The notes: generated from the sequence alone by a model not told the origin. A stretch of 64,000 bases of DNA from an uncultured Ignavibacteria bacterium (GCA_963711455.1 CAVQEH010000002.1:522756-586755); one strand, 5' to 3'; shown: positions 17,034 to 61,957, counted from the stretch's first letter. Program-made: numbers and translations.

Positions 17034-17049
17034 GATGCAGGTTTAAAAA

Positions 17050-20679: not shown

Positions 20680-20688
20680 GAGGTTTTT

Positions 20689-21693: not shown

Positions 21694-21817
21694 ATTAATT
21701 ACGTACATTTTTTTTTATTTATTTTTATTGTTGTTAATTAAAAATAAAATTTTATCCACTATATGAGAAAATCTTAGTATTATCATTAATTGGTTACAAT
21801 TAGAAAGGAGATCTTTT

Positions 21818-26133: not shown

Positions 26134-27123
26134 TTAATTCTGTTTCTTAGATGTAAATCTGTCTACTTTGTGATGAATTGGTGGTACAGTCTTTAAGTAA
26201 TCATAGATTGCATTCAGATCTTTATCAGCCATACCTGCATACGAATTCCATGGCATTGGTGTATTGAATTCACCCGGAGTTATAGTAGCATCTTTGTCAG
26301 AATATTGTTCAAACTGGTTTAAAAAATCTTTTCTTGTCCATCTTCCGATCCCGGTTTCAATATCGGGAGTAATATTAACCGACCTGACTATCCCTCCTTT
26401 GATTCTGAATTCTGTTCCTCCGGCAAAGGTCAGCTCATCATCCAGCTTCCCTTCTTTCATAGGAGTATGACAGTTTTTACAGTCTGCAATAGTAACCAGG
26501 TATTTCCCGTATTCAACAGAGTTTGATTCATCTATCGAATTTATCGGATCGTACGATTTTGGTGGAAATGTTTTCACGATCAGGTTCATTGGAAAATTAA
26601 TTGAACTTTGAGGGACTTCGTTTACAATAGGTTGAAGCGTTCTTAAATAAGCGATTATAGAATAAAGATCTTCCAATTTAAGATTGTGGTATTCAAGGTA
26701 AGGCATCAGCGGAAAGAGTACCCTGTTATCCTTTGTAACACCGGTTGTTATCGCCCTTAGCACTTCACCATTTGTCCATTCACCAATTCCCGATGGCGTA
26801 ATGTTGCCGGCATATATAGTTCCAGGCAAACCATCTTCAAATTTTTCTCCGCCCATACCTTCAGTTCCGGGAATAACGGGTCCGGAAAACTTTGTCCAGT
26901 CCCTTGTAGAATGACAGGAAAGGCATACGGTGACGTGATTAACGAGGTAATTTCCCCTTTCAATTCGCTGAACTGTTGGGAAAATTTCAACTTTCGGTGC
27001 CTGAATAGTTTTAGGGTAGTTGTTATTGAAATAAATATATCCACCGATAAGAATTATAATGATAAAGAGAAAAAAATATTTTATAATCCGGTAGATTATT
27101 TTCTTACTCTTTTTTTTGCCCAT
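26134..27123 (-). CDS. Membrane-anchored dihaem cytochrome c
   Basis: N-terminal TM helix. Two CxxCH motifs (CLSCH, CKNCH). Class-I cytochrome c patterns NITPSGIGEWT and NITPDIETGIGRWT. Confidence 0.85.
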   Translation of the reverse strand: MGKKKSKKIIYRIIKYFFLFIIIILIGGYIYFNNNYPKTIQAPKVEIFPTVQRIERGNYLVNHVTVCLSCHSTRDWTKFSGPVIPGTEGMGGEKFEDGLPGTIYAGNITPSGIGEWTNGEVLRAITTGVTKDNRVLFPLMPYLEYHNLKLEDLYSIIAYLRTLQPIVNEVPQSSINFPMNLIVKTFPPKSYDPINSIDESNSVEYGKYLVTIADCKNCHTPMKEGKLDDELTFAGGTEFRIKGGIVRSVNITPDIETGIGRWTRKDFLNQFEQYSDKDATITPGEFNTPMPWNSYAGMADKDLNAIYDYLKTVPPIHHKVDRFTSKKQN

Positions 27124-27425: not shown

Positions 27426-28418
27426 CTATTTTTCAGCAGCTTCTTCTGGAGTAAATCGTTTTACAATATGATAAACGGGTTTAACGGTTCTCAGGTAATC
27501 ATAAATTGCACCTAAATCTTCTTTTGACATTCCGGCAAATAATGTCCAGGGCATTACAGTGTTAAAATCATGAGGTCCTACAGCAACATTTTTTGCAGAA
27601 TCGCTGTCGAAAGATTTAAATTGGTTAACGAAATTTTCTTTTGTCCAGTTACCAATACCGGTTTCGGGATCCGGAGTAATATTTGCCGTCCTGATCGTTC
27701 CCCAGGGGAGATGAAATTCCTCTCCGCCGGCAAGGTCCATTCCTGGCAGCGGTTCGCCCTTTTTCGTAGGAGTATGGCAGCCGCTGCAGCTGGCAATAGT
27801 TACGAGATATTTTCCATATTCAACTGAGTTATTTTTATCTTCTGGAGGAGCGGGAGAATATGTTTTTATAGGCATTGTTTTAACAAGCAGATTTAATGGA
27901 AAATCCAATTCACTGTCGGGTACTTTATTTTCTATAGGTTTAAGAGATTTTATGTATGCAACTATCGAATACAGGTCCTCTTGTGTAAGATGATTAAAAC
28001 TATAATATGGCATCAACGGGAACAATGCTTTACCATCCTTATTAACACCCTGCGTTATTGCTCTTATAAGTTCTCCGTCAGTCCAGTTGCCTATTTCAGC
28101 AGGAGTTATATTTTTACTATAAAGATTTCCCGGGAATCCTATTTCCTTTGAATATTTTTCACCGCCCATTCCTCTTGTATCAGCTTTAATCGGACCCGAA
28201 TATTTTGTCCAGTCTCTTCCAGAATGACATTCAATACAACCTGTAACGTGATTTGCAAGATATTCACCTCTTGCAATTCTTTCTGGGGTAATTTCCACTT
28301 TTATGTCCCTGGGTTTACTAACATCGGGATATTTTGAATTGAAGTAAATAAATCCTACTAGAATTACCAGAATTAAAACACCAAGAACAACACCTGAAAT
28401 TTTGAAAATTTTTTTCAT
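27426..28418 (-). CDS. Membrane-anchored dihaem cytochrome c (paralogue of 26134-27123)
   Basis: N-terminal TM helix. CIECH and CSGCH motifs. Long strings shared with the neighbour (NSVEYGKYLVTIA, LFPLMPY, ITPD.ETGIG.WT, AIYDYL). Confidence 0.85.
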   Translation of the reverse strand: MKKIFKISGVVLGVLILVILVGFIYFNSKYPDVSKPRDIKVEITPERIARGEYLANHVTGCIECHSGRDWTKYSGPIKADTRGMGGEKYSKEIGFPGNLYSKNITPAEIGNWTDGELIRAITQGVNKDGKALFPLMPYYSFNHLTQEDLYSIVAYIKSLKPIENKVPDSELDFPLNLLVKTMPIKTYSPAPPEDKNNSVEYGKYLVTIASCSGCHTPTKKGEPLPGMDLAGGEEFHLPWGTIRTANITPDPETGIGNWTKENFVNQFKSFDSDSAKNVAVGPHDFNTVMPWTLFAGMSKEDLGAIYDYLRTVKPVYHIVKRFTPEEAAEK

Positions 28419-40416: not shown

Positions 40417-43400
40417 ATGAAAAAATTATACGCCCTAATCGTTCTCTTTTCTTTTGTCTCTTTAAATTTAACATTAGCATCTGTGCCCAAAGGAGTTTCG
40501 TTAAACAAAACTTCTGATGGATATTCTATAAATTTTGTGCTTCCTTCATATCAGCTTAATCCGGTTACAGTTGAAAACCAGCAATTTTATACCATTGAAA
40601 TTCCGGATTATGGGACAATTAACGAAGTTGGTCTTCCGGCACTACCGCAGATTTCATTTAATATGTTCATCCCTTACCAGGAAGAAAATCCTTCGGTTAA
40701 TGTTGGCAGAATTAATTCGGAAGTTAAGGAGCTAAAACAAAAAATCTATCCTTTTCAGCAGCCATGGGAAAAAAATAATCCTGTTTCAGAAAGACCATTT
40801 ACAATAAATCAAAGTTATTATAATTCTACCGGAAAAATTTATCCTTCCATTGATATTTCAGAACCATTTATAATTAATGGAGTAAAAGGAATAATTGTAA
40901 CCATTCATCCGTTCAATTATAATCCGATTGAAAATAAACTTACCATAATTAAATCGGGTGAATTCATTTTGAATTTGCATGGTAATGTTTCTCCCGTTTC
41001 GGGTAAATCAGCAATTTTCAACAGCTTCTTTAATAAGATATTTGCCAATTACGAATACACGGGTGAAAGATCCGGTGGTAATTATTTAATTATTACGGCT
41101 CCTGCATATGAATCCGATTTAGCTCCGTTTATAGATCTAAAGAGTGCGTCGGGATTCACGGTAGATGTATTTAATACAAATACAACCGGAACTTCAAACT
41201 CGGCTATTAAAAGTTTTATTCAACTGAGATATGACAACATTGCGACAAGACCCGATTATATTCTTCTCGTAGGTGATGTTGCAAATATTCCTGCCTGGAC
41301 AGGATCGGGAATAGATAATCCTACTACTGACCTGAAGTATGTTCAGCTAGAAGGCGGAGATTATTTTGCTGATGCATTTATTGGAAGATTTTCGGTAACA
41401 AATTCAACTCAGCTTGCAAATGCCATTAATAAATCCATTTTTATGGAATCCTATGTTGGCACTCTGGATTTAAAAAATGTATTTATGGCTTCCAATGATA
41501 ATTATTCAATTACCGAAGGAACTCACAACTATGTTATTAATACTTATTTCGATCCTGCCGGATATACAAATCTGAAGTTGTACTCTCACACTTATAATGC
41601 TACTACAACGCAATTGATTAATGCATTAAATGATAACCAGATATTTGCAATATATTCGGGACATGGTTCTGAAACATCCTGGGCTGATGGACCGCCCCTA
41701 ACTCAATCCCAGGTTAATGCACTAACCAACACCTGGTATCCTTACGTTTATTCTTTTGCGTGTTTAACAGGTTCATTTGCTACCGGTGAATGTTTTGGCG
41801 AGACCTGGCTGCGTACTGCTCACGGTGCCTCTTCGTTTTATGGATCATCGGTTACTTCTTACTGGGATGAAGATGATATACTCGAACGTAATGTAATTAA
41901 ATCAATGTTTGAGGATGAACTTGTAAGAGTTACTCCAATGTTTGTTCAGGGAATGATTTATCTTGTTGATCACTACGGCGGTATAAATGGTACAACCTTA
42001 AGGTATATGGAAATGTATAATCTTATGGGAGATCCTTCATTACCTGTAGTTGAAATGCTTCCGCCATGCCCAGTTGAAACAGCATCCAATCCAAATCCGG
42101 CAGCAGGTGCAACAGATGTTTCTATTAATCTACCTGAAATTACCTGGACGAATGGTGCTGATGCAGTTACAAATGAAACTTATTTTGGAACAAACCCGGC
42201 TTCATTAACCTTAGTTCAATCAGGTACTTTAGCAAATTCATGGACAATTGATCCCGGCTATTTACCTATGGATTATTATACTAATTATTACTGGAAAATT
42301 GTTGAAATAGGTGATACCTGTAGTTCTGCCGCCACATTTAGTTTTAGAACAGTGCAGGATCCAAACCTGGTTACTGTTACTGATACTCTCTACCCACAAA
42401 GTGTTGATTATTGGACAGGAACCTGTAATTCCAGTGCCAAAACCGAGGTAAGTACAATAAAAACAGTTTCTCCTGAACTGGGGTGGATGACTTTTGACAT
42501 AAGTTCAATTCCTGAAGATGCAGAAATATTATCTCTTTCCTTTAACGGTTATGTAAATGCTACTTACTATCCTTATTGGAGTGCTACACCAATGGGAACG
42601 GTTGACCCGGTATCAGGTAATGCCGCTGCTATTTATAACCAGGTAAGCAATAATGCTGATGAGGGAACTGCTTATATTTATTCCGATGAAACATCTTCAT
42701 TCACAACTGGCTGGCATTCATATCCAATGGAAAGTGGTGCCGCACCTGATCTTCAGAATGCATTGGGACAAAGTTGGTTTTCCATTGGTATATTCGATCG
42801 TGATGTCTCTACAACCTACTATATTAATTTTGATGGGTGGAGCGAAGCACATCCACCTTACCTGATCGTTAGCTATCAGTATGTAACTCCTGTAGAACTT
42901 ACCTCATTCGCGGCTACATCAAATGAGGGCAACGTAATATTAAACTGGGCAACTGCGACTGAAACTAATAACAGAGGTTTCGATGTTGAACGCAAATCGA
43001 TGAATAGTGAATACCAGAAAGTTGGTTATGTGGCAGGCTTTGGTACTTCAACAGAACCAAAATCTTACTCTTTTGCGGATAACAATATTAATGCAGGTAA
43101 CTATACTTACAGGTTGAAGCAGATTGATTTCAATGGAAGTTATTCATATTCAAACGAAGTAAATGTAAAAGTAACATCACCATTGCAGTATTCTCTTGAG
43201 CAAAACTATCCTAATCCATTTAATCCGAATACAACTATAAAATATTCAATGCCTGAAGATGGATTTGTAAAGCTTAAAGTATATAATTTGCTCGGTGAAG
43301 AAATAATCTCTCTCGTAAACAATGAACAAAAAGCAGGGAGATACGAAGTTGTATTTGATGCTTCAAGATTTGCAAGCGGTGTTTATTACTATCGCCTGGA

Positions 43401-43446
43401 AACCTCAAAATATACTTCGATAAAGAAAATGATACTGTTGAAGTAA
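40417..43446 (+). CDS. Gingipain-like cysteine peptidase (family C25) with a T9SS type-A C-terminal sorting domain
   Basis: Signal peptide. C25 features include YLIITAPAYESDLAPFIDLK and ILLVGDVANIPAW, a catalytic His region YSGHGSETSW and a catalytic Cys region YSFACLTGSF. The CTD is NYPNPFNPNTTI...GVYYYRLE...KKMILLK. Confidence 0.85.
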   Translation: MKKLYALIVLFSFVSLNLTLASVPKGVSLNKTSDGYSINFVLPSYQLNPVTVENQQFYTIEIPDYGTINEVGLPALPQISFNMFIPYQEENPSVNVGRINSEVKELKQKIYPFQQPWEKNNPVSERPFTINQSYYNSTGKIYPSIDISEPFIINGVKGIIVTIHPFNYNPIENKLTIIKSGEFILNLHGNVSPVSGKSAIFNSFFNKIFANYEYTGERSGGNYLIITAPAYESDLAPFIDLKSASGFTVDVFNTNTTGTSNSAIKSFIQLRYDNIATRPDYILLVGDVANIPAWTGSGIDNPTTDLKYVQLEGGDYFADAFIGRFSVTNSTQLANAINKSIFMESYVGTLDLKNVFMASNDNYSITEGTHNYVINTYFDPAGYTNLKLYSHTYNATTTQLINALNDNQIFAIYSGHGSETSWADGPPLTQSQVNALTNTWYPYVYSFACLTGSFATGECFGETWLRTAHGASSFYGSSVTSYWDEDDILERNVIKSMFEDELVRVTPMFVQGMIYLVDHYGGINGTTLRYMEMYNLMGDPSLPVVEMLPPCPVETASNPNPAAGATDVSINLPEITWTNGADAVTNETYFGTNPASLTLVQSGTLANSWTIDPGYLPMDYYTNYYWKIVEIGDTCSSAATFSFRTVQDPNLVTVTDTLYPQSVDYWTGTCNSSAKTEVSTIKTVSPELGWMTFDISSIPEDAEILSLSFNGYVNATYYPYWSATPMGTVDPVSGNAAAIYNQVSNNADEGTAYIYSDETSSFTTGWHSYPMESGAAPDLQNALGQSWFSIGIFDRDVSTTYYINFDGWSEAHPPYLIVSYQYVTPVELTSFAATSNEGNVILNWATATETNNRGFDVERKSMNSEYQKVGYVAGFGTSTEPKSYSFADNNINAGNYTYRLKQIDFNGSYSYSNEVNVKVTSPLQYSLEQNYPNPFNPNTTIKYSMPEDGFVKLKVYNLLGEEIISLVNNEQKAGRYEVVFDASRFASGVYYYRLETSKYTSIKKMILLK

Positions 43447-50306: not shown

Positions 50307-51759
50307 TCACTTCAGCAAAATCATCTTTCTTGTTTCCACAAAATAACCTGCACTTAATCTATAAAAATATACGCTGCTTCCAAGCAGACTGTTATCAAAC
50401 GACAAATATAATTTGTATGTTCCTGCCTGTTTAATTCCTTTATCAATGACCTTTATTAATTGACCAAGTGAATTAAATAATTCAACTTTGACATAAGCAG
50501 TGTTCTGTAAATTGTATTCTATCGTAGTAGAAGGATTAAAGGGATTGGGATAATTCTGGTAAAGAATAAATCCTTTATTGTCGGATACAATAGTTGCATT
50601 ACTAAGAAGTTTTATATGCTCTTTGAATAAATCAAACAGATCGGTATTCTGAATTTCATTGAATGCATATTTATCAGCTATGGATGTTAGATCAGGATGA
50701 ACGTAATCCCATATTACTGCTGACCTGGAAGGCGTAGACCTTATTGTCTGAAAATAGATTTTATAATTTTTAATCTTATCATTTATAACACCGAATTCTC
50801 CTAATAGGGCAGGCTTATCATAACTGCCTGAAATTTTAGTATGATTGTTTATCCAGGTATTTCCTGCAAGCACTTCTAATCCCCACCCTTCCGGATATAA
50901 ATGAAATGAAGAGTAATCGATATTTTCGATTGAAGTGTTTTCGACAAAACTTGTCCCCTTGTATCCATCAAATAAAAAATATGAACTGTTGTAAAACAAA
51001 TCCTCATCAGAATAATATTCTTTATGAATATCATAGCCTACTTCCCCTGTAGTAAGAAGATGACTAACATCAATTGATTTAAAATACTCTGCCATTTCTC
51101 TATACCAGGTTTTTAAAATATTTACAGAGAATCCGGTGTTTGATGCTTCATTAATTAATTCGAAACTGAAAATTATTGGTTCATCCTTGTATTGTACGCC
51201 GGTAAAAATATTCCTTCTGTTCAGAATTGAGTTGATATAAAATTTGTACCAGCTTTTTATCGAGTCATCGGTGAAGAAATCACTATGATGATAAATCTTT
51301 CCGGTTTGGGATTTCAATAACAGGTTAGCCCAATAAATATACTGTTCGATTCCCCCAAAATCGCTGAAGTTATTTTCCAGGGTTAAAATAATATTAACAT
51401 TATACTGCTTTGCTTTATAAATTACATAATCGAGTGCTCTTAATCCGGTTTCCTTTAAACCCATAAGGAGAATATCTGATAATCGATTGTTTATTTGAAT
51501 CCGAACCGGAATTAAATCCCCATGTTCTGATTACTTTTATTCCGTTTTGTTGTGCTGTTCTGAATACATCATCTACTATATATTTTTTAGAAGAATCTGA
51601 AGTTATCCATTGTAAGTAATAAGCACTGAATCCTAAAAAATAAAATTCTGAATTTCCCTTATAAAATTTTTTATCCTTACAATAAATAAAATCATTCTGA
51701 GGAAAAGCCGGGTGAATGAATAAAATCATCAGAGATAATATTAACATTAATATTTTCAC
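50307..51759 (-). pseudogene. Glycoside hydrolase family 5 (beta-mannanase/cellulase-like) with a T9SS CTD, split by a 1-nt frameshift near 51450-51465
   Basis: The 51415-51759 ORF carries the signal peptide and first GH5 strands (...VIRTWGFNSG...RYSPYG). The 50307-51464 ORF continues in another frame (LKETGLRALDYVIYKAKQYNVNIILTLENN, acid/base FELINEASN, nucleophile LLGEFG) and ends with the CTD NYPNPFNPSTTI...VYFYRL...RKMILLK. Confidence 0.7.
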
Positions 51760-51995
51760 AACTAAACCAACAACAATCGAAAAAAACTGTTTATTAAAGG
51801 TAGGATTTATTTTTTAGTTGTGCTTTATTTATCTGTTTAACAGAAAATATTTAACATTTTAAATGAATTGCCTTTTCAGGTTTTACATGACAATTCAAAT
51901 ATCAACTTTTATTTTCTTCAAGTCTTCAATAAAATGTTAGCAGCCTGATAGGGGGAGAGACTACCAGGCTGTGCACACAGGGAAAATTGTAATAG

Positions 51996-53636
51996 TTAAG
52001 CGGCTTCTTTTGTTTTTGAACTTGTTGTCCTCATCTTTGTGTACATAACTGAGATTATAAGCAGAATAATACTGACTGCCAAAAATGAAATTACTTTATA
52101 AGTAATGTCGGATGAAGTTATTCCGAAAGCTGCTAAATAAAGGCTCGTTAGTATCAGTGTAGATACTGCCATCATACGGTATTTTTTATTATTAAGGAGT
52201 TTACTCATTAAGTAATAAAGCAGAGCCAGCCCTGCCCACGATAATCCCACAAAGCTTGAAGGCAATACCTGGTAGAGTACATAAGGTAAGATAAAGAAAG
52301 CCATAATCAGGTAAGCAAGCCTGATATAATTAGTTGTCAGTTCTAATCTTGTCTTTTGCCAGTTCAGAATTCTTGCACTTATTAAAGCTGCAAACCCGAA
52401 GCTTATTCCTTCAATGCCAATAACTTTTACGTTGATGAGGTATGAAAGCAGAATACCTCCAAAGATAAAAATGTTTGCCACTATTATAAATTTGGATCTG
52501 AACCATAAAGCAGTAGAGATAACTACTATACTTTGCCAGCATAGAAGTATAAAGAATGCGGGTTCATTATATGAAGCAATAATAGATGCGCTTAGTGCAG
52601 CGTACGCAAACATCGCATAAATAAATGAACCAAACCTGCTTTTTTCTTTTGTCCAGAATAAGATTGCAAGCGTCATTAAAATTGCGAAGGCACCTAAGTG
52701 AACGATTCCAAGATTATTAATTCCGCTCAGGATAGAAATTAAAAGAAACAACCCGTATCCCAATGAGGCATTCATAATTGTAATAAATAATTCATCCAGC
52801 TCCCGTTTTTTATCTTTGATTAGTAATAAACTTCCAATCCCGTAAATCAATAAGTATGCTAATAAAAAAATCAGGTTATACTGAAACCCGGTAGTTATCT
52901 TGAGGTTATATCCAAGTAACGGATTGTTCACGAACCAGAGACAATGAGCAAGGCAAGTGAAAATTATACCAAATACCATAAGGTTGGATGATTTATATTT
53001 TAATGAAAATTGCACGACTGAAAAACTTATTACGGCAAGCATTACGAACATTAACCATGGAACCTCAGTAACAAGTGAGGTCATAATAAAGAACAGTTCT
53101 GCAAGTGCAATTAAATATATCGACTGGCGTTTGAAAGAAATTCCTATGGTTAAAGCACTTACAATCAGCAGCAGGATTACAACAAAAAATCTGCTTGTAA
53201 CTATTGGTTCTGCACTGAAGAAATGAAGACGCAATGTAGTGAGATAAAGCAATGCTGCACCTCCGCCGATTAAAAAACCCGAAATATATTTAAATGATTT
53301 AAGCCAGATTTCGGGAATAACAATCAATGCAATGCTTAGCACAAATCCAATTGCAACAGGAAGCAGCGGGGGATAATTATCTAATGGCTGTGTCATCAGA
53401 AAAAACATACCAAGAAGAAATGCCAGTATTCCGATTTTTGCAAACCAGAATTCCCCGATCGTAAGCTCAAGTGAATCATCTTCTTCCTCCTTCTTTCGTG
53501 CCGGACCTGTTACCTCCTCTGTTTTTGGGTTTTCCCATTTCAGATTCAGTGCATTCTCAACTTCCGTTAATCTCCTTTCAATACGGGTCATCGTATTAAT
53601 GAGGTCTTCAATTAAAGGATTGGATACATCGTTCAT
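51996..53636 (-). CDS. Large polytopic membrane protein, DUF2339-like
   Basis: N-terminal coiled-coil/charged segment (TRIERRLTEVENALN...KKEEEDD) followed by more than 12 hydrophobic helices. The architecture resembles DUF2339. It lies 17 nt downstream of the multihaem cytochrome gene. Confidence 0.55.
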   Translation of the reverse strand: MNDVSNPLIEDLINTMTRIERRLTEVENALNLKWENPKTEEVTGPARKKEEEDDSLELTIGEFWFAKIGILAFLLGMFFLMTQPLDNYPPLLPVAIGFVLSIALIVIPEIWLKSFKYISGFLIGGGAALLYLTTLRLHFFSAEPIVTSRFFVVILLLIVSALTIGISFKRQSIYLIALAELFFIMTSLVTEVPWLMFVMLAVISFSVVQFSLKYKSSNLMVFGIIFTCLAHCLWFVNNPLLGYNLKITTGFQYNLIFLLAYLLIYGIGSLLLIKDKKRELDELFITIMNASLGYGLFLLISILSGINNLGIVHLGAFAILMTLAILFWTKEKSRFGSFIYAMFAYAALSASIIASYNEPAFFILLCWQSIVVISTALWFRSKFIIVANIFIFGGILLSYLINVKVIGIEGISFGFAALISARILNWQKTRLELTTNYIRLAYLIMAFFILPYVLYQVLPSSFVGLSWAGLALLYYLMSKLLNNKKYRMMAVSTLILTSLYLAAFGITSSDITYKVISFLAVSIILLIISVMYTKMRTTSSKTKEAA

Positions 53637-53653
53637 AACTCCTCCGGGTTATT

Positions 53654-55138
53654 TTAATCCTTGGAAGGATTTTGTTTTTCTATTTTCCTGATGTATAAAA
53701 ACAGTACGAGTATCAGAAAACTTATTATTAACACCGATATTCCCAGGCCTACTCTTCTGAAGTAATATTCATGAATTGCCCCTCTTGCTTCTGCTATTAC
53801 ATCTTTTGAAGATGCAAATCCTTTATCGACAACTTCTTTAAATTTTTGTTCATTAAAAGAATGAAGAACTGTTCTTGATTGAAGTTTTGCCTGGTGTATA
53901 TTTCTTAATTCAAATTTTGCTTCTTCAACTTCCATCCCCTTTTGTTCGGCTTCGAAGATAAGGTTGTGAGCCAGTGTGTCCTGTTGCTCAAGGCTGTCAA
54001 GCCAGAATTTCATTTTAGAAGCAACTTTATAACCATTAACATTTTCTGATGATGAATGGCATTTGATACATACTGCACCCGAACTTATCCCAAGAAGACT
54101 ATCCTGGGCAGGAAGAATTTCGTGATGACCATGACACGTTTCACATTCGGGATAATTGTGTTCATCAAATGCTTTCTTGTGCGGACTGCCCGAGAACAAT
54201 TCGGCATTTAAAACATGGCAGGTTCCACAAACTTTTGAAATGGATGTTAACCCGGGTGGCATAGCACCATGATTACCATGACAACTATTGCAGACTGGAG
54301 CGCTTAAATCATTCTTTTCAAATAAAGCTATTCCGTGAGCACTCCTGGAATATTTTTCAAATTGATCTGTCGGTATTCCGTATTGCTTCATATACTCTTT
54401 ATTGCTATGACAGTTGGAACAGGTTTTGGGAATGTTGGTTGGGTATACAGAAGACTGAACATCTTTTGTTGAAAGAATGTTATGGCTTCCATGGCAGCTT
54501 ACACATTGTGCAGGTTTTGGATCTCCTTTTGCATTAAGAATACCATGTTCACTTGTACGGTATTTCTGCAATTGATCAATTGCTATTTCAGGATTGTAGG
54601 AACGCATAAACTTAGCATCACCATGACACTTGTTGCAGGTTTGCGGAATATTTGTAGGATAAACAGGAGACTTGGAATCTTTCACTGAAACAATTCCATG
54701 AGCATTATGACAGGTAATGCATTGAACAATTCTATCAGTTCCGTTTAGACTTAATTTTCCATGCACACTGTTTTTTAATAATTCCAATTGATTCGTTGGA
54801 AGTCTCTTGTTATAGTGTGAAATGAACGAAGAATCGGAATGGCACTTTGCACATATTTCAGAAATTTGGTTTCCCTTCGGAACCCCGATGAAACCTTTGT
54901 TTTTATTCATGGCTTCATCCATATCTTCACTATTATTGTCTCCGCCATGGCAATCAGAACATGATAACCCTGCAAGATGATGAATATCATTTTTAAATAA
55001 TTCCGCAGGTGTGCTTCCTAAATCAGAGTGGCAGGAGAAACATTGGTCCTGTTTTGCAGCATATACTTTTAAGTAACTAAATGTAAGAAAAAATAAAAAT
55101 GTTAAGCAGAATTTCGTTACAGTTTTCACGACAGCCAC
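53654..55138 (-). CDS. Undecahaem c-type cytochrome with a C-terminal membrane anchor
   Basis: Signal peptide. Eleven CxxCH motifs (CFSCH, CSDCH, CAKCH, CITCH, CNKCH, CVSCH, CSNCH, CNSCH, CGTCH, CETCH, CIKCH). C-terminal TM helix [20 protein letters not shown]. The start overlaps the cytochrome b stop by 13 nt. Confidence 0.9.
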
Positions 55139-56226
55139 CCGAGCGTTGTTAAGAGAATGATAAAGATTACGGCAAATAATCCCATATAATTAATCTTCAG
55201 GTTTCGTTCACCTCTTGAGCTTTTGCGATCCCAGAAAGGAACAAGCAGCCAGAGAATACCGGCTATACCGAAAAGAAGAATTCCAACAACTTCTCCTTCG
55301 AAGAAGAAGATATGAGAAGGGAAGTACTTTAAAGTCTGGAACATAAAGAGGAAATACCATTCGGGTTTGATCCCTGCAGGCGCGCTTCCGAAAAGATTTG
55401 CTTTCAACCCGAGTTCAGCAGGAAAGAAGACAGCGAGCACAGCTAAAAGGTTTAATACCAGTAACCATAAAAGAAGATCACGCAGAAAGAAGTTTGGAAA
55501 GAAAGGCATCTTCTTTAATGGTTTTTTTGATTTTTCTGTTTCAAGTGGTTCGCTCATTCCCTGTCTCTGGACAAGAATAAGATGTATTGCAAGGATCATT
55601 GTGAATATTCCTGGCAGAAGTGCTACGTGGAAGCCAAAAAATCTTGAAAGCGTTGCACCTGTTACATCACTGCCGCCTCTGAGGAAAATTTTGATTGGTT
55701 CTCCTACAAAAGGAATTGCACCGGCAATATCGGAACCTACTTTTGTTGCAAAGAAAGCAAGCTGATTCCATGGGAGAAGGTAACCGCTGAATCCGAAAAA
55801 TAATGCGAGGAAAAACATTATTACTCCTGTTAGCCAGGTTAACTCTCTCGGTTTGCGGTATGCTTTTTCAAAATAAACACTAAACATATGAATGAACAAT
55901 GAAAGTATAAAAAGATTTGCCGACCACGCGTGTATTGATCTTACAAGCCAGCCGAACTGTACTTTGGACATTATAAACTGAATGCTCTCGTATGCGAGAT
56001 CCGCACTTCCTTTATAATAAAAAAGGAGAAGTATTCCTGTAACAACCTGTATGATAAAAAAGAAAACAGAAACTCCTCCGAAATAATACCATAATGAATG
56101 TCTGTGAACGGGCACATACTTTTTACTAAAGAATTTAATAAGGTCTTCAAACTGTACCCGTTCGTCTGTCCATTTATAAATTTTTAAAAAGAGATTTTTC
56201 ATTTTTTCACTATGTATTTTTTGCAA
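55126..56226 (-). CDS. Cytochrome b (fused b6 + subunit IV-like) of a Rieske/cyt b complex
   Basis: Helix-B haem ligands are H-x13-H ([15 protein letters not shown]). Helix-D ligands are H-x14-H ([16 protein letters not shown]), which is the b6-type spacing. The Qo-site PEWY motif is present (KPEWYFLF). Confidence 0.92.
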
Positions 56227-56662
56227 TCATTAATTCGTCGCCCTTTATTATGGTTTTATATTTTGTAAGAGGTCTCGGCGGGGGACCGGAAATGTTGCGC
56301 CCCGTTAAATCGTATTTACCGTTATGACAGGCACACCAGATTACATTTTTATCCTTCAAATATTGCACGGTACAATCAAGGTGAGTACACCTTGCTGAAA
56401 GTGCAATAAAGTTATTCTTATCAGGAATAACTATTACCGGTTCATTTCCAAAGCGGATAATCTTAAAGTTCTCTTTTTTCAGATCTTCTATTTTCCCGGC
56501 ACTGACTACAGAGACTTCAACTTCTCTTTGTTTAGGAGGACGCAGAAAAGAAAAAACCGGATATAAAACGGAAGCAGAAAATGCAGTTACTCCGGTTATA
56601 CCAAGAATTTTCAGAAAGCTTCTCCGGTTTGTTTGTTTATTAACTAGATCAGATTTTTCCAT
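56210..56662 (-). CDS. Rieske [2Fe-2S] protein with a twin-arginine signal
   Basis: Tat motif [10 protein letters not shown]. Cluster-binding boxes are CTHLDC and CACHNG. The cytochrome b start overlaps its stop by 17 nt. Confidence 0.9.
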
Positions 56663-56683
56663 AATGAGAATGCTTTTATTACT

Positions 56684-57052
56684 TTATTTATAAAATGAAA
56701 TTGTTGCTGATATTATCTCTTTAATAATTTTGTTGTCGATCGGTTTTTCGGTTAAATTAAATATGCCCTCCTGGTAAAGTATTCCGCCTTCGTTAGGATT
56801 AATTCTTTCATTTAAGATGATCAGCGGGATTCTTGGATTTATTCGCTTAATGATTTTTACCCAGTTATGACATGCAGAAAAACTTTCAGTGCAATCGCAA
56901 ATCACCATGTCGTAATCATTCTCCTGGAGATCAAGAATGAACCCTGCGAATTCTTTTTTCTTAACGAGTGCAATACCAATCTCCGAGCAAATTTCAAAAC
57001 ATTGTGATATTGTATCCTCATCGCTGCTAAGTATTATCCCTCTGAACTTCAT
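56684..57052 (-). CDS. Stand-alone receiver (CheY-like) domain protein with atypical conserved positions
   Basis: 122 aa. Beta1 is GIILSSDED rather than the usual xDD. A phospho-acceptor-like Asp is present in DMVICDC. A KP motif is present in LTEKPID. The position usually held by Thr/Ser reads LIILNE. Confidence 0.5.
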   Translation of the reverse strand: MKFRGIILSSDEDTISQCFEICSEIGIALVKKKEFAGFILDLQENDYDMVICDCTESFSACHNWVKIIKRINPRIPLIILNERINPNEGGILYQEGIFNLTEKPIDNKIIKEIISATISFYK

Positions 57053-57252
57053 AAGCGATACCTTCTATATCTTAAACCTGTGAAGTCATTTATTGTACCA
57101 GAAAAGTATTTATCGGCTTTATTTAGAATTTGAAAGGATTTGGCGGGAATATAATGAGTTGCACCTCCCAAATAAATTGAAGAATGAATGAAAAGTGTAT
57201 CCCTGATGTCACACTAATTGATAATTGTCAATTGTTAATTTATAATTACTAA

Positions 57253-58641
57253 TCACTTCCTGTATTGCTGAGGATCAAGATTATATTTTTTAAGTATGCG
57301 GTGAATATGTCTGCGGGTCATTCCTGCTTCTTCCGAAATTCGGGTAATATTTCCCTTATGCTTATTTAACAAAAAAAGAAAATACTTTTTTTCAACTTCC
57401 TCTACTGCTTTATTCCTTACCTGCGAAAGTGATGTCGTTTTAAAATGAGTTGAGGTCTGTCGTGAAGAAATGAATTGGGAAGGGAGTTCGTTAAGAGTTA
57501 TTTTTTCACCTTTGGAGAGTGCAACTGCACGTTCGACTATATTTTCCATTTCTCTTACATTCCCGGGCCAGTCGTATGCTTCAAATAATTCGATCACAGA
57601 ATCATCAAATCCTTTTATATTCTTTGGAGATGACTTAACCGTCTTAATAAGAAAGTGTTCTGCAAGAAGCCGGATATCTCCTTCACGCTCTCTTAATGGC
57701 GGAACCTGGATGTTAATGACGTTCAGCCTGTAATAGAAATCCTTACGCATTATTTCTCTTTCAAGCGCTTTATTAATATCCTGGTTTGTTGCAGATATTA
57801 ACCTTATATCAGCCTGTAGTAATTCGTTTCCGCCAAGTCGCCTCAACTGCTGGTCCTGCAAGCTTCTTAATAATTTTATCTGGAGATTAACAGGAAGTTC
57901 ACAAACCTCATCAAGAAAAAATGAGCCTCCGTTTGCATATTCAAGCAGTCCTATTTTTCTGTGAGTTGCTCCCGTAAAAGCACCTTTTTCATAACCGAAT
58001 AATTCTGCCTCAAAAAGATTCTCGGGGAAGGCTCCACAATTTACAGGAACAAAAGGCTTAAGCTTTCTTCTGCTGTGAGCATGAATACTGCGTGCTATCA
58101 ATTCTTTTCCTGTACCGCTTTCTCCTGTAATAAGAACATTAGCTTCAGAATCGGCAACGCTTTCAATCATTTCAAAAACTTTTCTTATAGGTTCGCTTTT
58201 ACCAATAATGTTATCAAACCTGTACCTGTCTTCAAGCTGCTTAAGTAAGTTGATTCTTTCTTTATAAAGGTTCCTTTGACGCAAACCTTTTTCTACTAGT
58301 ATTTTCAGGTTCTCGGTTTCAAATGGTTTTTCAATAAAATCAAAAGCTCCCGCTTTCATCGCTGCAACAGCTCTGTCTATTGTGCCGTAAGCTGAAAACA
58401 TAATTACCGGTGTGTTCGGTGCCAGTTTTTGTATTGCATCTAAAACCTGCATTCCATCGAAGTCTGGCATAAGCAGATCACAAAATACTAAATCAAATTC
58501 TTCATCCTGCATCAGACTAATTGCCTGTTTTCCATCAGGAACAGGATAAGGGCTATTACCCAATGCTGAAAGTATTTTCGCACAGCCTTTAAGCATATCA
58601 GGTTCATCATCTATAATCAGGATTTTGTGGTTTGCATTCAT
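57253..58641 (-). CDS. Sigma-54-dependent response regulator (NtrC family: receiver + AAA+ + Fis-type HTH)
   Basis: Receiver domain (ILIIDDEPD, FCDLLMPDFDG). Walker A GESGTGKE. GAFTGA loop. C-terminal HTH GNITRISEEAGMTRRHIHRILKKY. Confidence 0.92.
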   Translation of the reverse strand: MNANHKILIIDDEPDMLKGCAKILSALGNSPYPVPDGKQAISLMQDEEFDLVFCDLLMPDFDGMQVLDAIQKLAPNTPVIMFSAYGTIDRAVAAMKAGAFDFIEKPFETENLKILVEKGLRQRNLYKERINLLKQLEDRYRFDNIIGKSEPIRKVFEMIESVADSEANVLITGESGTGKELIARSIHAHSRRKLKPFVPVNCGAFPENLFEAELFGYEKGAFTGATHRKIGLLEYANGGSFFLDEVCELPVNLQIKLLRSLQDQQLRRLGGNELLQADIRLISATNQDINKALEREIMRKDFYYRLNVINIQVPPLREREGDIRLLAEHFLIKTVKSSPKNIKGFDDSVIELFEAYDWPGNVREMENIVERAVALSKGEKITLNELPSQFISSRQTSTHFKTTSLSQVRNKAVEEVEKKYFLFLLNKHKGNITRISEEAGMTRRHIHRILKKYNLDPQQYRK

Positions 58642-60401
58642 ATTTTAATTCCTTCGCTGCTGTAAGGCAGAGTAATTATAAACCGTGTAAATTTTCCTTC
58701 TTCGCTTTCAACATCAAGTTTACCTCGGTATCTCTGCACTATTGTTCTGGAAATTGATAAGCCCAATCCGGTTCCCTGCGCATCAAGCTTTGTAGAGAAG
58801 AAAGGATTAAAAATTTTGGATAGATTTTCCTTTTTTATTCCCATCCCATCGTCTTCAATTGAAATAAAGATACCATTAATTTTCTTTGATCCGAACGGAT
58901 TTCGATCAATATCATTTTTCCCGGTTTTTATTTTTATTTCTCCGCCATTTGATAATGCATCTATTGCATTGTTAAGTATATTTATAATTACTTGTTCCAT
59001 CTGCCTTTTATCTGCAAGAATCAATGGAAGTGAAGGAGCGTAAAATTTGGTCAAATGTATTTTATTTGCTTTTATACGATGTCCTATAAGATAAACACAT
59101 TCATCTATCAAATCTTCAATGCGAATAGCTTCAGGTTTGAAAGGCATTAAACGGGAATAAGTGAGAAGCGTTCTTGTATAATCGGCTATCCTTCGTGTCT
59201 GGTTCCTTATAATATTCAACTCTTCCCTGATACTATTATATTTCTCGTCTTCAAGCAGAAGCGCATCAGTGTGAGCGGCAATAATTCCTGCAGGCGTATT
59301 CAATTCGTGTGCTACGCTATCAACCAGTTCTCCTATTGAAGCAAGCTTTGAAGCCTGGTTTAACTGTTCCCTGTATTGATGTATTTCTTCGAGATTCCTG
59401 TTAACCTCTTCTGCTCTTATTCTTTTAAGATTAATAAAATATATTAATACGCCAAGAGTAAAAATCACTGCGAGAATAATTAATCCTAAAATAAAAAACA
59501 GTTGAAACCGGCTTCTTAACCCTGTCGTTACTTTAGGAAGCAATGTACTAATTGCAATAATCCATTTTTGGTTTTGAAGCTTCACAGGCACATAAGCCAT
59601 TATTTTATGAGGCTCATTTCCACGCACATAATATTCATCAACAGAAGAATGATTTGATGTAATCATCCTGTTTTGAGTATCGAAATTTACATGGCAGTTG
59701 TTGCATTCATTAGTTGTTCTAAGGATTGATTTAAAAAGCATTTCCTGATGTCTCGGGTGATAAATAAGTCTTCCTTCGCCATCGAGCACCCAGGCGAAAT
59801 CATCACTGCTTAATTTTAATGGCTTAATAAAACGTTTAATGAGAATATCAAAATCAACAAGATAACCAACGAAATAATTATTTTTACTTTTGTCTTTCTC
59901 ATTGAGTCTGATTATCATCAGGAAAGATTCAGGACTGTTCTTAACATTACTATAATCCGGCATTACATCAGAAAAAACATATTCCGAATCGGTTCTGTTT
60001 ATTGATGAAGTTAACCCGGGAATTTTTTTCAGCGACCAGTTTGGAAGGATGTTGCCTATGCTATAAATAACCAGTCCGGAAGAATCAGCCAAAAATATCG
60101 AACGTATAATAGTGCTGTCGTAGTTCTCTTTAAAGAATCTGAAATAAGCATAATTATTTTTTGCAGGGGTAGCAAGTACATCGGGATTATGAGTTAACAA
60201 TTTCATATCTCTAACGAGATGCTCTATAAAGAAATTGATTCCCTGTGCAACAGATTTAGCCATTTCAAGCTGCTGAAGCTGGTGATCATGTTTTGCATCT
60301 TCCAATGTACTGTTATAAATTCTGTTTACCAGAAAAAGGAATATAAAGACGAGCACAATTGTACCGATTGTGACAAAGTATTTTCTTGATTTTCTTTTCA
60401 T
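58638..60401 (-). CDS. Sensor histidine kinase with a periplasmic Cache/PAS-like domain carrying a CxxCH haem-c motif
   Basis: TM1 is about aa 8-29 and TM2 about aa 300-325, enclosing a roughly 270-aa periplasmic domain with C233-NN-C236-H237. Canonical H-box SVAHELNTPAG. HATPase boxes NNAIDA, DDGMGI and GTGLGLSI. There is a 4-nt overlap with the NtrC-type gene. Confidence 0.88.
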   Translation of the reverse strand: MKRKSRKYFVTIGTIVLVFIFLFLVNRIYNSTLEDAKHDHQLQQLEMAKSVAQGINFFIEHLVRDMKLLTHNPDVLATPAKNNYAYFRFFKENYDSTIIRSIFLADSSGLVIYSIGNILPNWSLKKIPGLTSSINRTDSEYVFSDVMPDYSNVKNSPESFLMIIRLNEKDKSKNNYFVGYLVDFDILIKRFIKPLKLSSDDFAWVLDGEGRLIYHPRHQEMLFKSILRTTNECNNCHVNFDTQNRMITSNHSSVDEYYVRGNEPHKIMAYVPVKLQNQKWIIAISTLLPKVTTGLRSRFQLFFILGLIILAVIFTLGVLIYFINLKRIRAEEVNRNLEEIHQYREQLNQASKLASIGELVDSVAHELNTPAGIIAAHTDALLLEDEKYNSIREELNIIRNQTRRIADYTRTLLTYSRLMPFKPEAIRIEDLIDECVYLIGHRIKANKIHLTKFYAPSLPLILADKRQMEQVIINILNNAIDALSNGGEIKIKTGKNDIDRNPFGSKKINGIFISIEDDGMGIKKENLSKIFNPFFSTKLDAQGTGLGLSISRTIVQRYRGKLDVESEEGKFTRFIITLPYSSEGIKI

Positions 60402-60553
60402 TTCTGATTTTATTCACCCCTTAATCAACCATAATAATAGCCGCAGATGAATATACTTAAGAAGAAAGAGTTAAAAAAGGATCATTTTAAGTTTATTTCT
60501 GTAGGGTAATTTTTCTTTGCCGCCTTAAAATAAATGTGAGTGTAGTATTAAAG

Positions 60554-60566
60554 GTCACAGTGTGAC
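60554..60566. promoter_or_regulatory. Perfect 13-bp palindrome GTCACAgTGTGAC (candidate operator) in the divergent intergenic region
   Basis: Located at 60554-60566, with a third GTCACA half-site at 60574-60579. It lies between the kinase operon (minus strand) and the MacAB-like operon (plus strand). Confidence 0.3.
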
Positions 60567-60769
60567 ATAATTAGTCACAACAAAATTAATTGGAATATTT
60601 TTGAATATTAATTCTGATGCACATATATCAAAACCACTAATAATAATTTAAGGTTATTCAATATAATTTTGAAATCACTCACCAGAAATTAACCAAAAGT
60701 TAAAGAGAAATGTCTTTGCTTTATGGATTCAGTTAGTTAATTTTAAAGCTTAAAATTCCCGGGACAGAG

Positions 60770-61957
60770 ATGGAAACAAGTAAAGCCGATTTATCTTCGC
60801 TTAGGATAGATAGGTCTAATAATCATAATCCGAATTCATCGCGAAAAACTGTAATTATTATAGTTGTAATTATTGCTGCGGCGATTTTATTATTTCTTGG
60901 ATATACAATAGGTGGCTCATTATTTAATCCGGCAGAAGAAGTAAAACTTGTCACCGTCACACTTCAATCACCTTCACAGGCAAGTGCAGACCTAGCTGCA
61001 AGCGGCTATGTGGTTGCACAAAGAAAAGCAGCCGTTGCTTCGAAAGGAACAGGACGGTTGGAATACCTTGGAGTTGTTGAGGGAGATAAAGTTAAAAAAG
61101 ATCAGGTCCTTGGGAGATTAGAAGATAATGATATCAGGGCTCAGCTTGAAGAAGCAAACGCTAATCTGAAATTAGCTGAGGCAGATTTAAAAGATTCGGA
61201 AAATAATTACAACAGGCAGAAAGAATTATTAAAATCCGGAGCTACAACCCAAATGGATGTAGATGCTGCCGAAGCGCAATACAAAAGAGTGCTTGCTTCA
61301 ATTGATGTGGCAAAAGCAAATGTAAACTCTGCTCAAGTAGCTTTGGAAAATACTCTTATCCGTGCACCATTTGACGGAACAGTTTTAACTAAAAATGCTG
61401 AAGTAGGTGAAATTGTTGCACCGCTTGGTGCAAGTACGACTTCACGTGGTGCAATCGTCACTATGGCTGATATGAAATCACTTCAGGTGGAAGCAGATGT
61501 TTCGGAATCTTATATTGAACGAATTAAAACGGGACAGAGCTGCGAGATAATTCTTGATGCGTATCCACAAACTTCTTATGAAGGTTTTGTGGATAAAATT
61601 GTTCCGACTGCCGACAGGTCAAAAGCTACAGTACTTGTTAAAGTTGGTTTTAAAAAATATGATAGTAAAGTTCTTCCTGAAATGAGCGCTAAAGTTCTTT
61701 TTCTTTCAGAGCAGTTAACGGCTGAACAGAAAAATGAACCGTCCGTGCTTGTCGTACCTTTTACTTCTGTAGCTAAACGTGATGGACGCGATGTAGCATT
61801 TATGGTTAAAGATGATAAAGCTGTTGAAGTACCTGTTGTGAAAGGGAGAGACCTGGATTCCTTTATTGAAATTAAATCTGGACTTGCTGAAGGCGACAGA
61901 GTTATTGAGAAAGTGAACGATGAAATTAAAGATGGCGTAAAGATAAAAGTTCAGTAG
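60770..61957 (+). CDS. Efflux periplasmic adaptor (HlyD/MacA-like)
   Basis: N-terminal TM anchor. Coiled-coil hairpin (RAQLEEANANLKLAEADLKDSENNYNRQKELL). IRAPFDGTVLTKNAEVGEIV barrel motif. Confidence 0.85.
   Translation: METSKADLSSLRIDRSNNHNPNSSRKTVIIIVVIIAAAILLFLGYTIGGSLFNPAEEVKLVTVTLQSPSQASADLAASGYVVAQRKAAVASKGTGRLEYLGVVEGDKVKKDQVLGRLEDNDIRAQLEEANANLKLAEADLKDSENNYNRQKELLKSGATTQMDVDAAEAQYKRVLASIDVAKANVNSAQVALENTLIRAPFDGTVLTKNAEVGEIVAPLGASTTSRGAIVTMADMKSLQVEADVSESYIERIKTGQSCEIILDAYPQTSYEGFVDKIVPTADRSKATVLVKVGFKKYDSKVLPEMSAKVLFLSEQLTAEQKNEPSVLVVPFTSVAKRDGRDVAFMVKDDKAVEVPVVKGRDLDSFIEIKSGLAEGDRVIEKVNDEIKDGVKIKVQ

Follow-up and report, generated by a model that had tools for sequence, protein, structure and literature searches.

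A Rieske/cytochrome b gene cluster with a multihaem cytochrome gene

We analyzed a 64,000-nucleotide stretch of DNA from an uncultured Ignavibacteria bacterium (GCA_963711455.1, CAVQEH010000002.1:522756-586755), hereafter the window, and focused on three adjacent genes on its minus strand that encode a Rieske protein, a cytochrome b and a c-type cytochrome with eleven haem-binding motifs. A preliminary description of this DNA, made from the sequence alone, had read them as a quinol:multihaem-cytochrome oxidoreductase. The Rieske [2Fe-2S] subunit (150 amino acids, positions 56210-56662) was recognized by its twin-arginine (Tat) signal/anchor and by its CTHLDC and CACHNGKY boxes. The cytochrome b gene (55126-56226), identified by motifs, Pfam domains and hydropathy, encodes 366 amino acids when read from the TTG at 56226 or, more likely, 358 amino acids from the ATG at 56202. 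The gene of the undecahaem c-type cytochrome (53654-55138) encodes 494 amino acids from the GTG at 55138, with an alternative GTG at 55129, and specifies 11 CxxCH motifs, a signal peptide and a membrane anchor. All three open reading frames (ORFs) were found on the minus strand exactly where they had been placed before. The G+C content of the window is 32-40%.

The preliminary description also reported overlaps of 17 and 13 nucleotides between these genes. Such values are obtained with the longest ORFs, which start at the TTG at 56226 and the GTG at 55138, but not with the starts that we consider likelier: the ATG at 56202 leaves a 7-nucleotide gap after the Rieske stop codon, and the GTG at 55129 produces a 4-nucleotide GTGA overlap with the cytochrome b gene. 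The equivalents of these two starts were picked by the gene caller in an 86%-identical relative. Under either choice of starts, the Rieske, cytochrome b and multihaem genes are tightly packed.

The Rieske and cytochrome b subunits

The Rieske protein presents the sequence RRSFL at residue 13, within a twin-arginine motif that spans residues 12-21, and then a hydrophobic segment at residues 19-37; it is thus predicted to be exported or anchored through the Tat pathway. Its cluster-binding boxes lie at residues 92 (CTHLDC) and 110 (CACH, within CACHNGKY) and include the disulfide cysteines, and the Pfam Rieske model matches with an E-value of 4.9e-14. The Tat signal and both boxes had been part of the preliminary description and are all present. 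Among solved structures, the best relatives are the Rieske protein of Chlorobaculum tepidum (8hn2, E = 1.1e-16) and, in second place, that of Kuenenia (9rk4). Residues +2 and +4 after the CxCH are G and Y, a signature that has been linked to a Rieske potential of around +200 mV; according to this rule, we predict such a potential for the window's cluster (PMC4122944). Rieske proteins from the Chlorobi/NC10/Acidobacteria clade of menaquinol oxidases have potentials in the same low-to-middle range (PMC4122944).

Regarding cytochrome b, we found two histidine pairs, H99-x13-H113 in helix B and H200-x14-H215 in helix D, and a PEWY motif at residue 288. In an alignment with cytochrome b6 (1vf5_A), all four fall on its haem-ligand histidines, residues 86, 100, 187 and 202. 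Pfam recovered Cytochrome_B at residues 37-223 (E = 1.5e-52) and Cytochrom_B_C at residues 281-365 of the same polypeptide, which confirms the fused b6 plus subunit IV form proposed earlier, together with each of its motifs. In the hydropathy scan, six helices rose above threshold (A, C, D, E, F and G); helix B, where H99 and H113 are located, brings the number to seven, and the polypeptide ends at helix G. At the position where b6 has Cys35, the cysteine that binds haem c_n, the alignment shows a tyrosine (WYYFGG). The protein scored 243 bits with the NCBIfam 'cytochrome b6' model, whose cut-off is 325, and 215.4 bits with the Geobacter ExtP model, whose equivalog cut-off is 290, so neither threshold was reached.

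With the Rieske boxes, the Tat signal, the histidine pairs in helices B and D and the PxWY of the quinol-oxidizing (Qo) site, these proteins have the features of the Rieske/cytochrome b superfamily. As judged from their sequences, the three genes are an operon for a predicted respiratory, quinol-oxidizing enzyme of the complex III type.

The undecahaem subunit

The third protein contains exactly 11 CxxCH motifs, at residues 33, 60, 96, 140, 168, 212, 240, 283, 304, 332 and 357, while we estimate that about 0.001 would be expected by chance in a protein of this size. These motifs hold 22 of its 23 cysteines, and the remaining one belongs to the signal peptide. Four of them (140, 212, 283 and 332) have the form CxxCHxxH. 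The N-terminus resembles a Sec signal peptide and hydropathy reveals one strongly hydrophobic C-terminal segment, at residues 463-481. The predicted topology, with a signal peptide, a periplasmic haem domain and a C-terminal anchor, is that of cytochrome c1/f. In this protein, the signal peptide, the eleven motifs, the paired arrangement of several of them and the C-terminal transmembrane helix were all found as first described, and so was an internal duplication: residues 139-211 align with residues 211-282 with a local score of 191 (shuffle mean 25, z = 35), and weaker copies of the repeat flank them on both sides. The repeated module spans about 72 residues and binds two haems.

In Pfam and NCBIfam, the third gene matched multihaem families only, namely Paired_CXXCH_1 and cytochrome c3/c7, with DmsE-type decahaem proteins below the cut-off. 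The profiles that would be expected from the oxidoreductase reading (Rieske, the N- and C-terminal domains of cytochrome b and Paired_CXXCH_1) were thereby all matched.

We modelled the multihaem subunit with AlphaFold2 using 89 homologues and obtained a model with a pLDDT of 89 and a pTM of 0.76. It places a haem-rich region before three helices (residues 367-399, 405-427 and 430-489), the last of which continues into the anchor. According to this confident model, the subunit would be a haem-rich domain on a three-helix stalk that leads into the anchor. A Foldseek search with the model returned no close solved structure; the top match was Kuenenia HAO (4n4j; E = 0.015, probability 1.00, TM 0.36 over 409 columns), followed by weak matches to octahaem nitrite reductase, NrfA and MccA. 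With phmmer, the protein also matched octahaem nitrite reductase weakly, with E-values of about 0.01.

Besides the histidines of the motifs, ten are invariant (53, 126, 147, 198, 219, 268, 290, 320, 339 and 426), against eleven haems, and the invariant methionines include 77, 250, 376 and 402. Since there is one such histidine fewer than there are haems and methionines are conserved, one haem may be ligated by His/Met or may be open. Hence, one could argue that the undecahaem protein is an enzyme of the HAO, octahaem nitrite reductase or NrfA type with an open catalytic haem, which would make the complex a quinol:substrate reductase for nitrite, hydroxylamine, sulfite or a similar compound. 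The best fold matches and the weak sequence matches come from those enzymes, with which the model shares a compact haem domain followed by long C-terminal helices and which are the only solved structures that Foldseek recovered; the missing histidine fits as well, and an anammox Rieske/cytochrome b complex with an HAO-like subunit, itself proposed to be a quinol:substrate reductase, provides a precedent (PMC12954380). However, the matches are weak, the window protein is membrane-anchored, we found no CxxCK motif in it and identified no catalytic residues, and a conserved methionine could take the place of the missing ligand. Moreover, two-haem repeats and matches to Paired_CXXCH and DmsE-like models are typical of electron-transfer wires. 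We therefore regard a catalytic role as unlikely.

At the start of the anchor, the motif Y-F-R-R-x-G-L is invariant in the Ignavibacterial alignments, and R-R-x-G-L is still recognizable across the diverse family described below. The conservation of this juxtamembrane motif argues for a specific packing rather than for a passive tether.

Conservation of the operon and origin of the eleven haems

To place the operon among its relatives, we searched one genome per species and obtained matches in at least 588 species-representative genomes. The statistics on loci given from here on refer to the best 80 of these relatives, which show 51-80% identity. By their source labels, they are metagenome-assembled genomes or isolates of Ignavibacteria or Bacteroidota, with a few from Chlorobi or Chitinophagales, and they include the cultivated Stygiobacter electus 09-Me (L064). 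Together with the type IX secretion cargo and the PorV-like gene of the window, these labels place its source in the class Ignavibacteria. Cytochrome b lies directly upstream of the multihaem gene in all 80 loci, preceded by the Rieske gene in 76; the other four are interrupted by contig ends. The multihaem gene is hence conserved beside Rieske and cytochrome b wherever the contig permits, as the reading of a quinol:multihaem-cytochrome oxidoreductase predicts. The eleven haem motifs are retained in 79 of the 80 homologues, the one exception being a truncated protein. PEWY is retained in 76 of 77 homologues and the tyrosine at the c_n position in 72, and the Rieske boxes are conserved.

We then scanned 1.84 billion cluster representatives (clusters at 50% identity) for the wider family, which comprised 3452 clusters at E <= 0.001 and 565 at E <= 1e-30. 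In the best 150 clusters, nine CxxCH motifs were found in 87 of the 100 proteins of 380-520 amino acids, and eleven in only 6, so that a typical member has about 420 amino acids and nine haems. When the window protein was aligned to three 9-haem members, a single gap of 72 residues appeared every time, which indicates that it corresponds to a 9-haem protein plus one duplicated two-haem module. From these alignments, the undecahaem protein is best described as a lineage-specific (Ignavibacteria) expansion of a widespread 9-haem subunit, predicted to have arisen by tandem duplication of one module. Full-length homology, haem motifs, anchor motif and operon position together assign the window protein to this family of putative nona-/undecahaem subunits.

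A single-sequence search located 9-haem members in Thermoanaerobaculaceae (Acidobacteriota) and in Candidatus Binatia; a profile search with 9-haem sequences returned mostly 11-haem proteins, as the extra repeat raises the score. In three genomes (one from each of these groups and a third one), the 9-haem operon consists of a Rieske gene (150-158 amino acids), a cytochrome b gene (360-369 amino acids) and the multihaem gene, the last two overlapping by 4 nucleotides. Their cytochromes b are 53-55% identical to that of the window, with PEWY and the same x13 and x14 spacings, and have Y or F, and no Cys, at the c_n position.

The gene order also bears on whether the cytochrome is a subunit at all. 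It might instead be a periplasmic cytochrome with an anchor of its own that shares nothing but its transcript with a Rieske/cytochrome b module of two subunits, and green sulfur bacteria do encode their cytochrome c partner away from the Rieske/cytochrome b pair (PMC10172866). Yet the order of the genes is strict across phyla, with the 4-nucleotide overlap, and the anchor motif is conserved. Besides, a natural fusion of cytochrome b, four extra helices and the multihaem domain was found in two independent sources (1012 and 1018 amino acids), and the 1018-amino-acid protein is encoded directly after a Rieske gene. Since the number of extra helices is even, the haem domain of these fusions would stay in the periplasm. 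Taking both sides together, we consider a cytochrome outside the complex the most improbable of the alternatives weighed here.

Another apparent fusion of cytochrome b with a 9-haem domain (P0144, L086:333-2705) was discarded. Its 7+1 helices would leave the haems in the cytoplasm, and helix G is continued in frame by the signal peptide of the cytochrome itself. The probable cause is a frameshift or a faulty assembly in the metagenome record.

Larger proteins were also present in the family. P0125 and P0271 (760 amino acids) and P0252 (654 amino acids) carry 18 CxxCH motifs, P0125 as two tandem 9-haem units, and other members have 13-16 motifs. Haem number is thus evolutionarily labile in this family.

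Comparison with known Rieske/cytochrome b complexes

By comparing the operon with known systems, we could discard several identities. It does not encode a b6f complex: the haem c_n cysteine is replaced by tyrosine, a single polypeptide combines b6 and subunit IV, and cytochrome f is absent. Hence, the 'b6-type' label of the preliminary description holds for the H-x14-H of helix D and for the 4+3 helix layout, but not for the c_n cysteine. Nor is it a bc1 complex, given its seven-helix instead of eight-helix cytochrome b, the x14 instead of x13 spacing in helix D and an 11-haem subunit in place of monohaem c1. With cytochrome c1/f, the undecahaem subunit shares the operon position, the topology and the presumed role as electron acceptor of the Rieske protein; it differs in having eleven haems instead of one, and there is no sequence or fold relationship.

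By its motifs, the operon resembles the Chlorobi-type Rieske/cytochrome b complex (the Chlorobi/NC10/Acidobacteria clade of Kao & Hunte 2014, PMC4122944; subfamily J in PMC5600118), with which it has in common the long fused cytochrome b, PEWY, H-x14-H and the G-Y signature. In subfamily J, the long cytochrome b keeps the glycines of CxGG without the cysteine (Dibrova et al. 2017, PMC5600118). The same xxGG relic without cysteine is found in the window's cytochrome b. The partner differs: in green sulfur bacteria it is the monohaem cytochrome c-556, encoded by a separate gene (CT0073) according to PMC10172866, whereas in the window it is an anchored multihaem cytochrome within the operon.

Regarding multihaem partners, in the anammox complexes Kuste4569-4574 and Kustd1480-1485 of Kuenenia the place of cytochrome f is taken by a membrane-anchored cytochrome c with six or eight haems, next to a Rieske protein and a b6-like cytochrome b (PMC12954380). 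The anchored multihaem partner is common to both systems, and so is the relatedness of the Rieske proteins noted above (9rk4). However, Kuenenia has split b6 and subunit IV with haem c_n and a NAD(P) oxidoreductase, while in the window cytochrome b is a single polypeptide that lacks the c_n cysteine, and its partner has eleven haems. An anammox-type identity was rejected, as there is no NAD(P) oxidoreductase gene: the neighbours encode a receiver-like protein, a DUF2339 protein and a two-component system. In Geobacter, ExtO (Rieske), ExtP (cytochrome b) and ExtQ adjoin ExtM (12 haems), ExtN (10 haems) and a porin-like protein (PMC2825233, PMC5877670). ExtP differs from the window's protein in being a short cytochrome b with a separate membrane subunit, and the function of the Geobacter module is itself unproven. 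With cytochrome b below the ExtP cut-off (215.4 against 290 bits), an ExtOPQ/ExtMN identity was also rejected. No Ext-named NCBIfam model matched the window's cytochrome at E <= 0.001, although it is uncertain whether the library includes models for ExtM and ExtN.

Because the Kuenenia and Geobacter systems were already known or predicted, a Rieske/cytochrome b pair with a multihaem partner is not a new concept, and eleven haems stand at the large end without being unprecedented in a neighbour. The earlier statement that such a number is unusually large holds against the family norm of nine, but Geobacter already has 10- and 12-haem genes beside Rieske and cytochrome b. What appears undescribed is the widespread module formed by a long cytochrome b without haem c_n and a C-terminally anchored 9- or 11-haem subunit. 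In the literature that we searched, we found no description of a Rieske/cytochrome b/multihaem complex in Ignavibacteria, and a multi-omics paper on Melioribacter contains no mention of a Rieske complex.

Genomic context and possible regulation

The gene that follows the cytochrome encodes a polytopic DUF2339 membrane protein of 546 amino acids (51996-53636, minus strand; assigned by Pfam and hydropathy). The gene starts 17 nucleotides past the stop codon of the cytochrome gene and is preceded by a GGAGGAG ribosome-binding site, and given this spacing and this site it is probably co-transcribed; its product could be an accessory subunit or an assembly factor. A DUF2339 homologue neighbours the operon in 28 of the 80 related loci, sometimes upstream. 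On the other side, a gene for a small receiver-domain-like protein (122 amino acids, 56684-57052, minus strand), recognized by a weak Pfam Response_reg match, ends 21 nucleotides upstream of the Rieske gene. The closest relatives have it too, and the transcription unit probably begins with this gene.

Further upstream, on the same strand, lie the genes of a sigma-54-dependent response regulator of the NtrC family (462 amino acids, 57253-58641; assigned by model match) and of a sensor histidine kinase (587 amino acids, 58638-60401). The kinase contains one CxxCH (NECNNCH, at about residue 233) between transmembrane segments 8-26 and 302-320, a region called dCache_1 in the gene annotation of a close relative, and the motif is kept in 12 of 14 kinase orthologues of the related loci. 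The segment with the CxxCH is presumably periplasmic, and the kinase is probably a haem-c redox or ligand sensor. A sigma-54 response regulator is linked to the operon in 13 of the 80 loci, and the arrangement of kinase, regulator, operon and DUF2339 gene is also seen in the closest relatives and in S. electus 09-Me. In the window's lineage, the adjacent sensor kinase and sigma-54 activator would probably control the expression of the operon.

Regarding promoters, the element TGGTACAATAAATGA (57086-57100, minus strand) ends 33 nucleotides upstream of the ATG of the small receiver gene and resembles a sigma-54 -24/-12 element, degenerate in sequence and conserved in position. Elements of the form TGGYAY-N5/6-TG lie upstream of the operon in 10 related loci, among them L001-L003, L008, L021, L064, L080, L055 and L018. 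The GC at -12 is not conserved among them, and a scan of the whole window with the strict sigma-54 consensus gave matches at chance level. We propose TGGTACAATAAATGA as a weak candidate for a sigma-54 promoter element. Promoter and terminator consensus scans of positions 51700-60800 performed no better than on shuffled sequences.

To describe wider neighbourhoods, we used the 53 loci of at least 11 kb among the 80. Most relatives other than the closest ones differ from the window in their arrangement. In 39 of the 53, the operon is accompanied by one or more additional genes that encode four haem motifs or more; 36 have the gene of a NapC/NirT/NrfH-like 6-haem membrane cytochrome immediately before the Rieske gene, on its upstream side, and 18 carry a porin-like protein. 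Across the 80 loci, other recurrent neighbours were a 13-19-haem cytochrome fused to or placed before an FdnI/HydC-type b cytochrome (CbcL-like), a 4-haem c554-like protein, a 14-haem cytochrome and lipoprotein cytochromes. In Ignavibacteria, clusters of porin and cytochrome genes and homologues of ImcH and CbcL had been described before (PMC4245776, PMC6295460, PMC7399161).

Large multihaem islands of this kind surround the operon in many relatives (for instance at L004:699-11467, L013:8131-9429, L005:652-2664 and L006:3822-4379) and have the CbcL-like and NapC/NirT-like 6-haem genes upstream, and the c554-like 4-haem, porin-like beta-barrel, 14-haem and lipoprotein cytochrome genes downstream.

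As the operon lies within islands of this kind, many relatives would have three types of quinol oxidase side by side.

The same neighbourhoods bear on the direction of electron flow. In the opposite direction, Fe(II), a cathode or a periplasmic donor would deliver electrons through the multihaem subunit to the quinone pool, or into a reverse bifurcation. Rieske/cytochrome b complexes are reversible in principle, and multihaem and porin neighbourhoods are also used by iron oxidizers. The sequence holds no signal of direction, but the ImcH- and CbcL-like neighbours suggest an outward flow, and the Ignavibacteria known from culture live organotrophically and reduce Fe(III), arsenate or nitrate (PMC7399161). 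An uptake function seems highly unlikely to us, and we retain quinol oxidation as the direction of the complex.

Other features of the window

Two paralogous proteins of about 330 amino acids are encoded at 26134-27123 and 27426-28418 on the minus strand. Each has an N-terminal hydrophobic segment and two CxxCH motifs; both match Pfam Cytochrom_C, and one of them Cytochrome_CBB3 as well. Apart from the undecahaem protein, the window encodes no c-type cytochromes but these two, which could serve as electron acceptors or donors.

At 50307-51759 on the minus strand, a gene that resembles GH5 mannosidases and carries a type IX secretion tail is split into the overlapping ORFs 51415-51759 and 50307-51464, and corresponds to a single 482-amino-acid gene in the 86%-identical relative (L081). 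The split is a frameshift, due either to a pseudogene or to a sequencing error. On the plus strand, the regions 14199-23299 and 40417-43446 encode a TonB-dependent receptor, a 1209-amino-acid protein without a Pfam match, a PorV-like protein, a CBM20 protein and a C25 peptidase, the last two with type IX secretion sorting tails. This gene content is typical of polysaccharide- and protein-degrading Bacteroidota/Ignavibacteria.

Proposed mechanism and electron sink

Considering these results as a whole, we find it probable that the Rieske protein, cytochrome b and the undecahaem subunit form one membrane complex in which a Q cycle feeds a haem relay; from the gene content, we infer the Q cycle, the contact between subunits, the direction, the acceptor and the regulation. 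In the proposed mechanism, menaquinol would be oxidized at the PEWY Qo site. One electron would travel by way of haems bL and bH to a site near the cytoplasm where quinone is reduced, in a Q cycle without haem c_n, and the other would be carried by the mobile Rieske cluster to the nearest haem of the undecahaem subunit. This subunit would replace cytochrome c1/f as a multi-electron relay or store that reaches into the periplasm, and electrons would pass along its haem chain to periplasmic carriers. The most likely sink would be an extracellular or periplasmic acceptor of high potential.

Several observations weigh against this proposal. For Ignavibacterium album, the published genome analysis reported alternative complex III alone, without a cytochrome b-Rieske complex (PMC3362086), which means that the module is not universal in the class. 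The window contains neither a porin nor a terminal reductase nor a second multihaem cytochrome, and in other phyla the 9-haem operons are isolated, with housekeeping genes around them. Electron transfer to the outside is, for these two reasons, not a general property of the family. Thermodynamics poses the main difficulty: a Rieske cluster at about +200 mV donates electrons poorly to ordinary bis-His haems, whose potentials usually lie well below 0 mV. The haem chain must consequently include high-potential haems or serve only high-potential acceptors, and unusually high potentials would be required of the entry haems. Outside the motifs, only ten invariant histidines are available for eleven haems, and conserved methionines may act as ligands.

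One could also argue that the operon encodes an ordinary complex III whose multihaem subunit feeds cbb3 or caa3 oxidases, or periplasmic nitrogen-oxide reductases, and takes no part in an extracellular path. A Rieske/cytochrome b Q cycle needs a high-potential acceptor, and the G-Y signature predicts about +200 mV for the Rieske protein (PMC4122944); the operons of the window, Acidobacteriota, Binatia and the third genome stand alone without genes for extracellular electron transfer; and Ignavibacteria possess several oxidases as well as nitrite and nitrous-oxide reductases (PMC3362086, PMC6828613). Against this, further multihaem genes adjoin most of the long Ignavibacterial loci (39 of 53, with a porin-like gene in 18), and nine to eleven haems far exceed what is needed to reach a soluble monohaem carrier. 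This explanation is possible, but we are doubtful of it. The suggestion of the preliminary description that electrons may travel toward outer-membrane or extracellular acceptors is accordingly supported by the neighbourhoods of the relatives and finds no support in the window. The former point to periplasmic and outer-membrane cytochromes, while the stand-alone operons are equally compatible with oxidases or periplasmic reductases.

Returning to the complex with a haem relay, a bolder reading, which we hold to be less likely than not, would extend the proposal to a phylogenetically broad and previously unrecognized class of complex III, present in Ignavibacteria, Acidobacteriota, Binatia and others. 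With its dedicated nona-/undecahaem subunit, such an enzyme might tie electron transfer in the periplasm or to the cell exterior directly to a proton-motive Q cycle, and in Ignavibacteria it might act as an energy-conserving 'high-potential gear' beside the ImcH- and CbcL-like oxidases that many relatives encode next to it. A high-potential entry haem, ligated for instance by His/Met, might bridge the Rieske cluster and the chain.

Implications

The routes by which electrons leave the menaquinone pool, and the energy that they yield in respiration with minerals, electrodes or periplasmic acceptors, are well studied only for a few proteins of Geobacter and Shewanella, none of which is a Rieske/cytochrome b enzyme with a proven role. 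The module described here is abundant (at least 588 species-representative genomes, 565 clusters), has a fixed three-gene architecture and has at least one cultivated carrier, S. electus 09-Me. If a Q cycle does feed a haem wire, the complex would offer a tractable case of a +200 mV iron-sulfur cluster coupled to a multihaem chain, and the energy yields estimated for anaerobic respiration would change for Ignavibacteria and Acidobacteriota, two groups often encountered in sediments, soils, bioreactors and anode biofilms.

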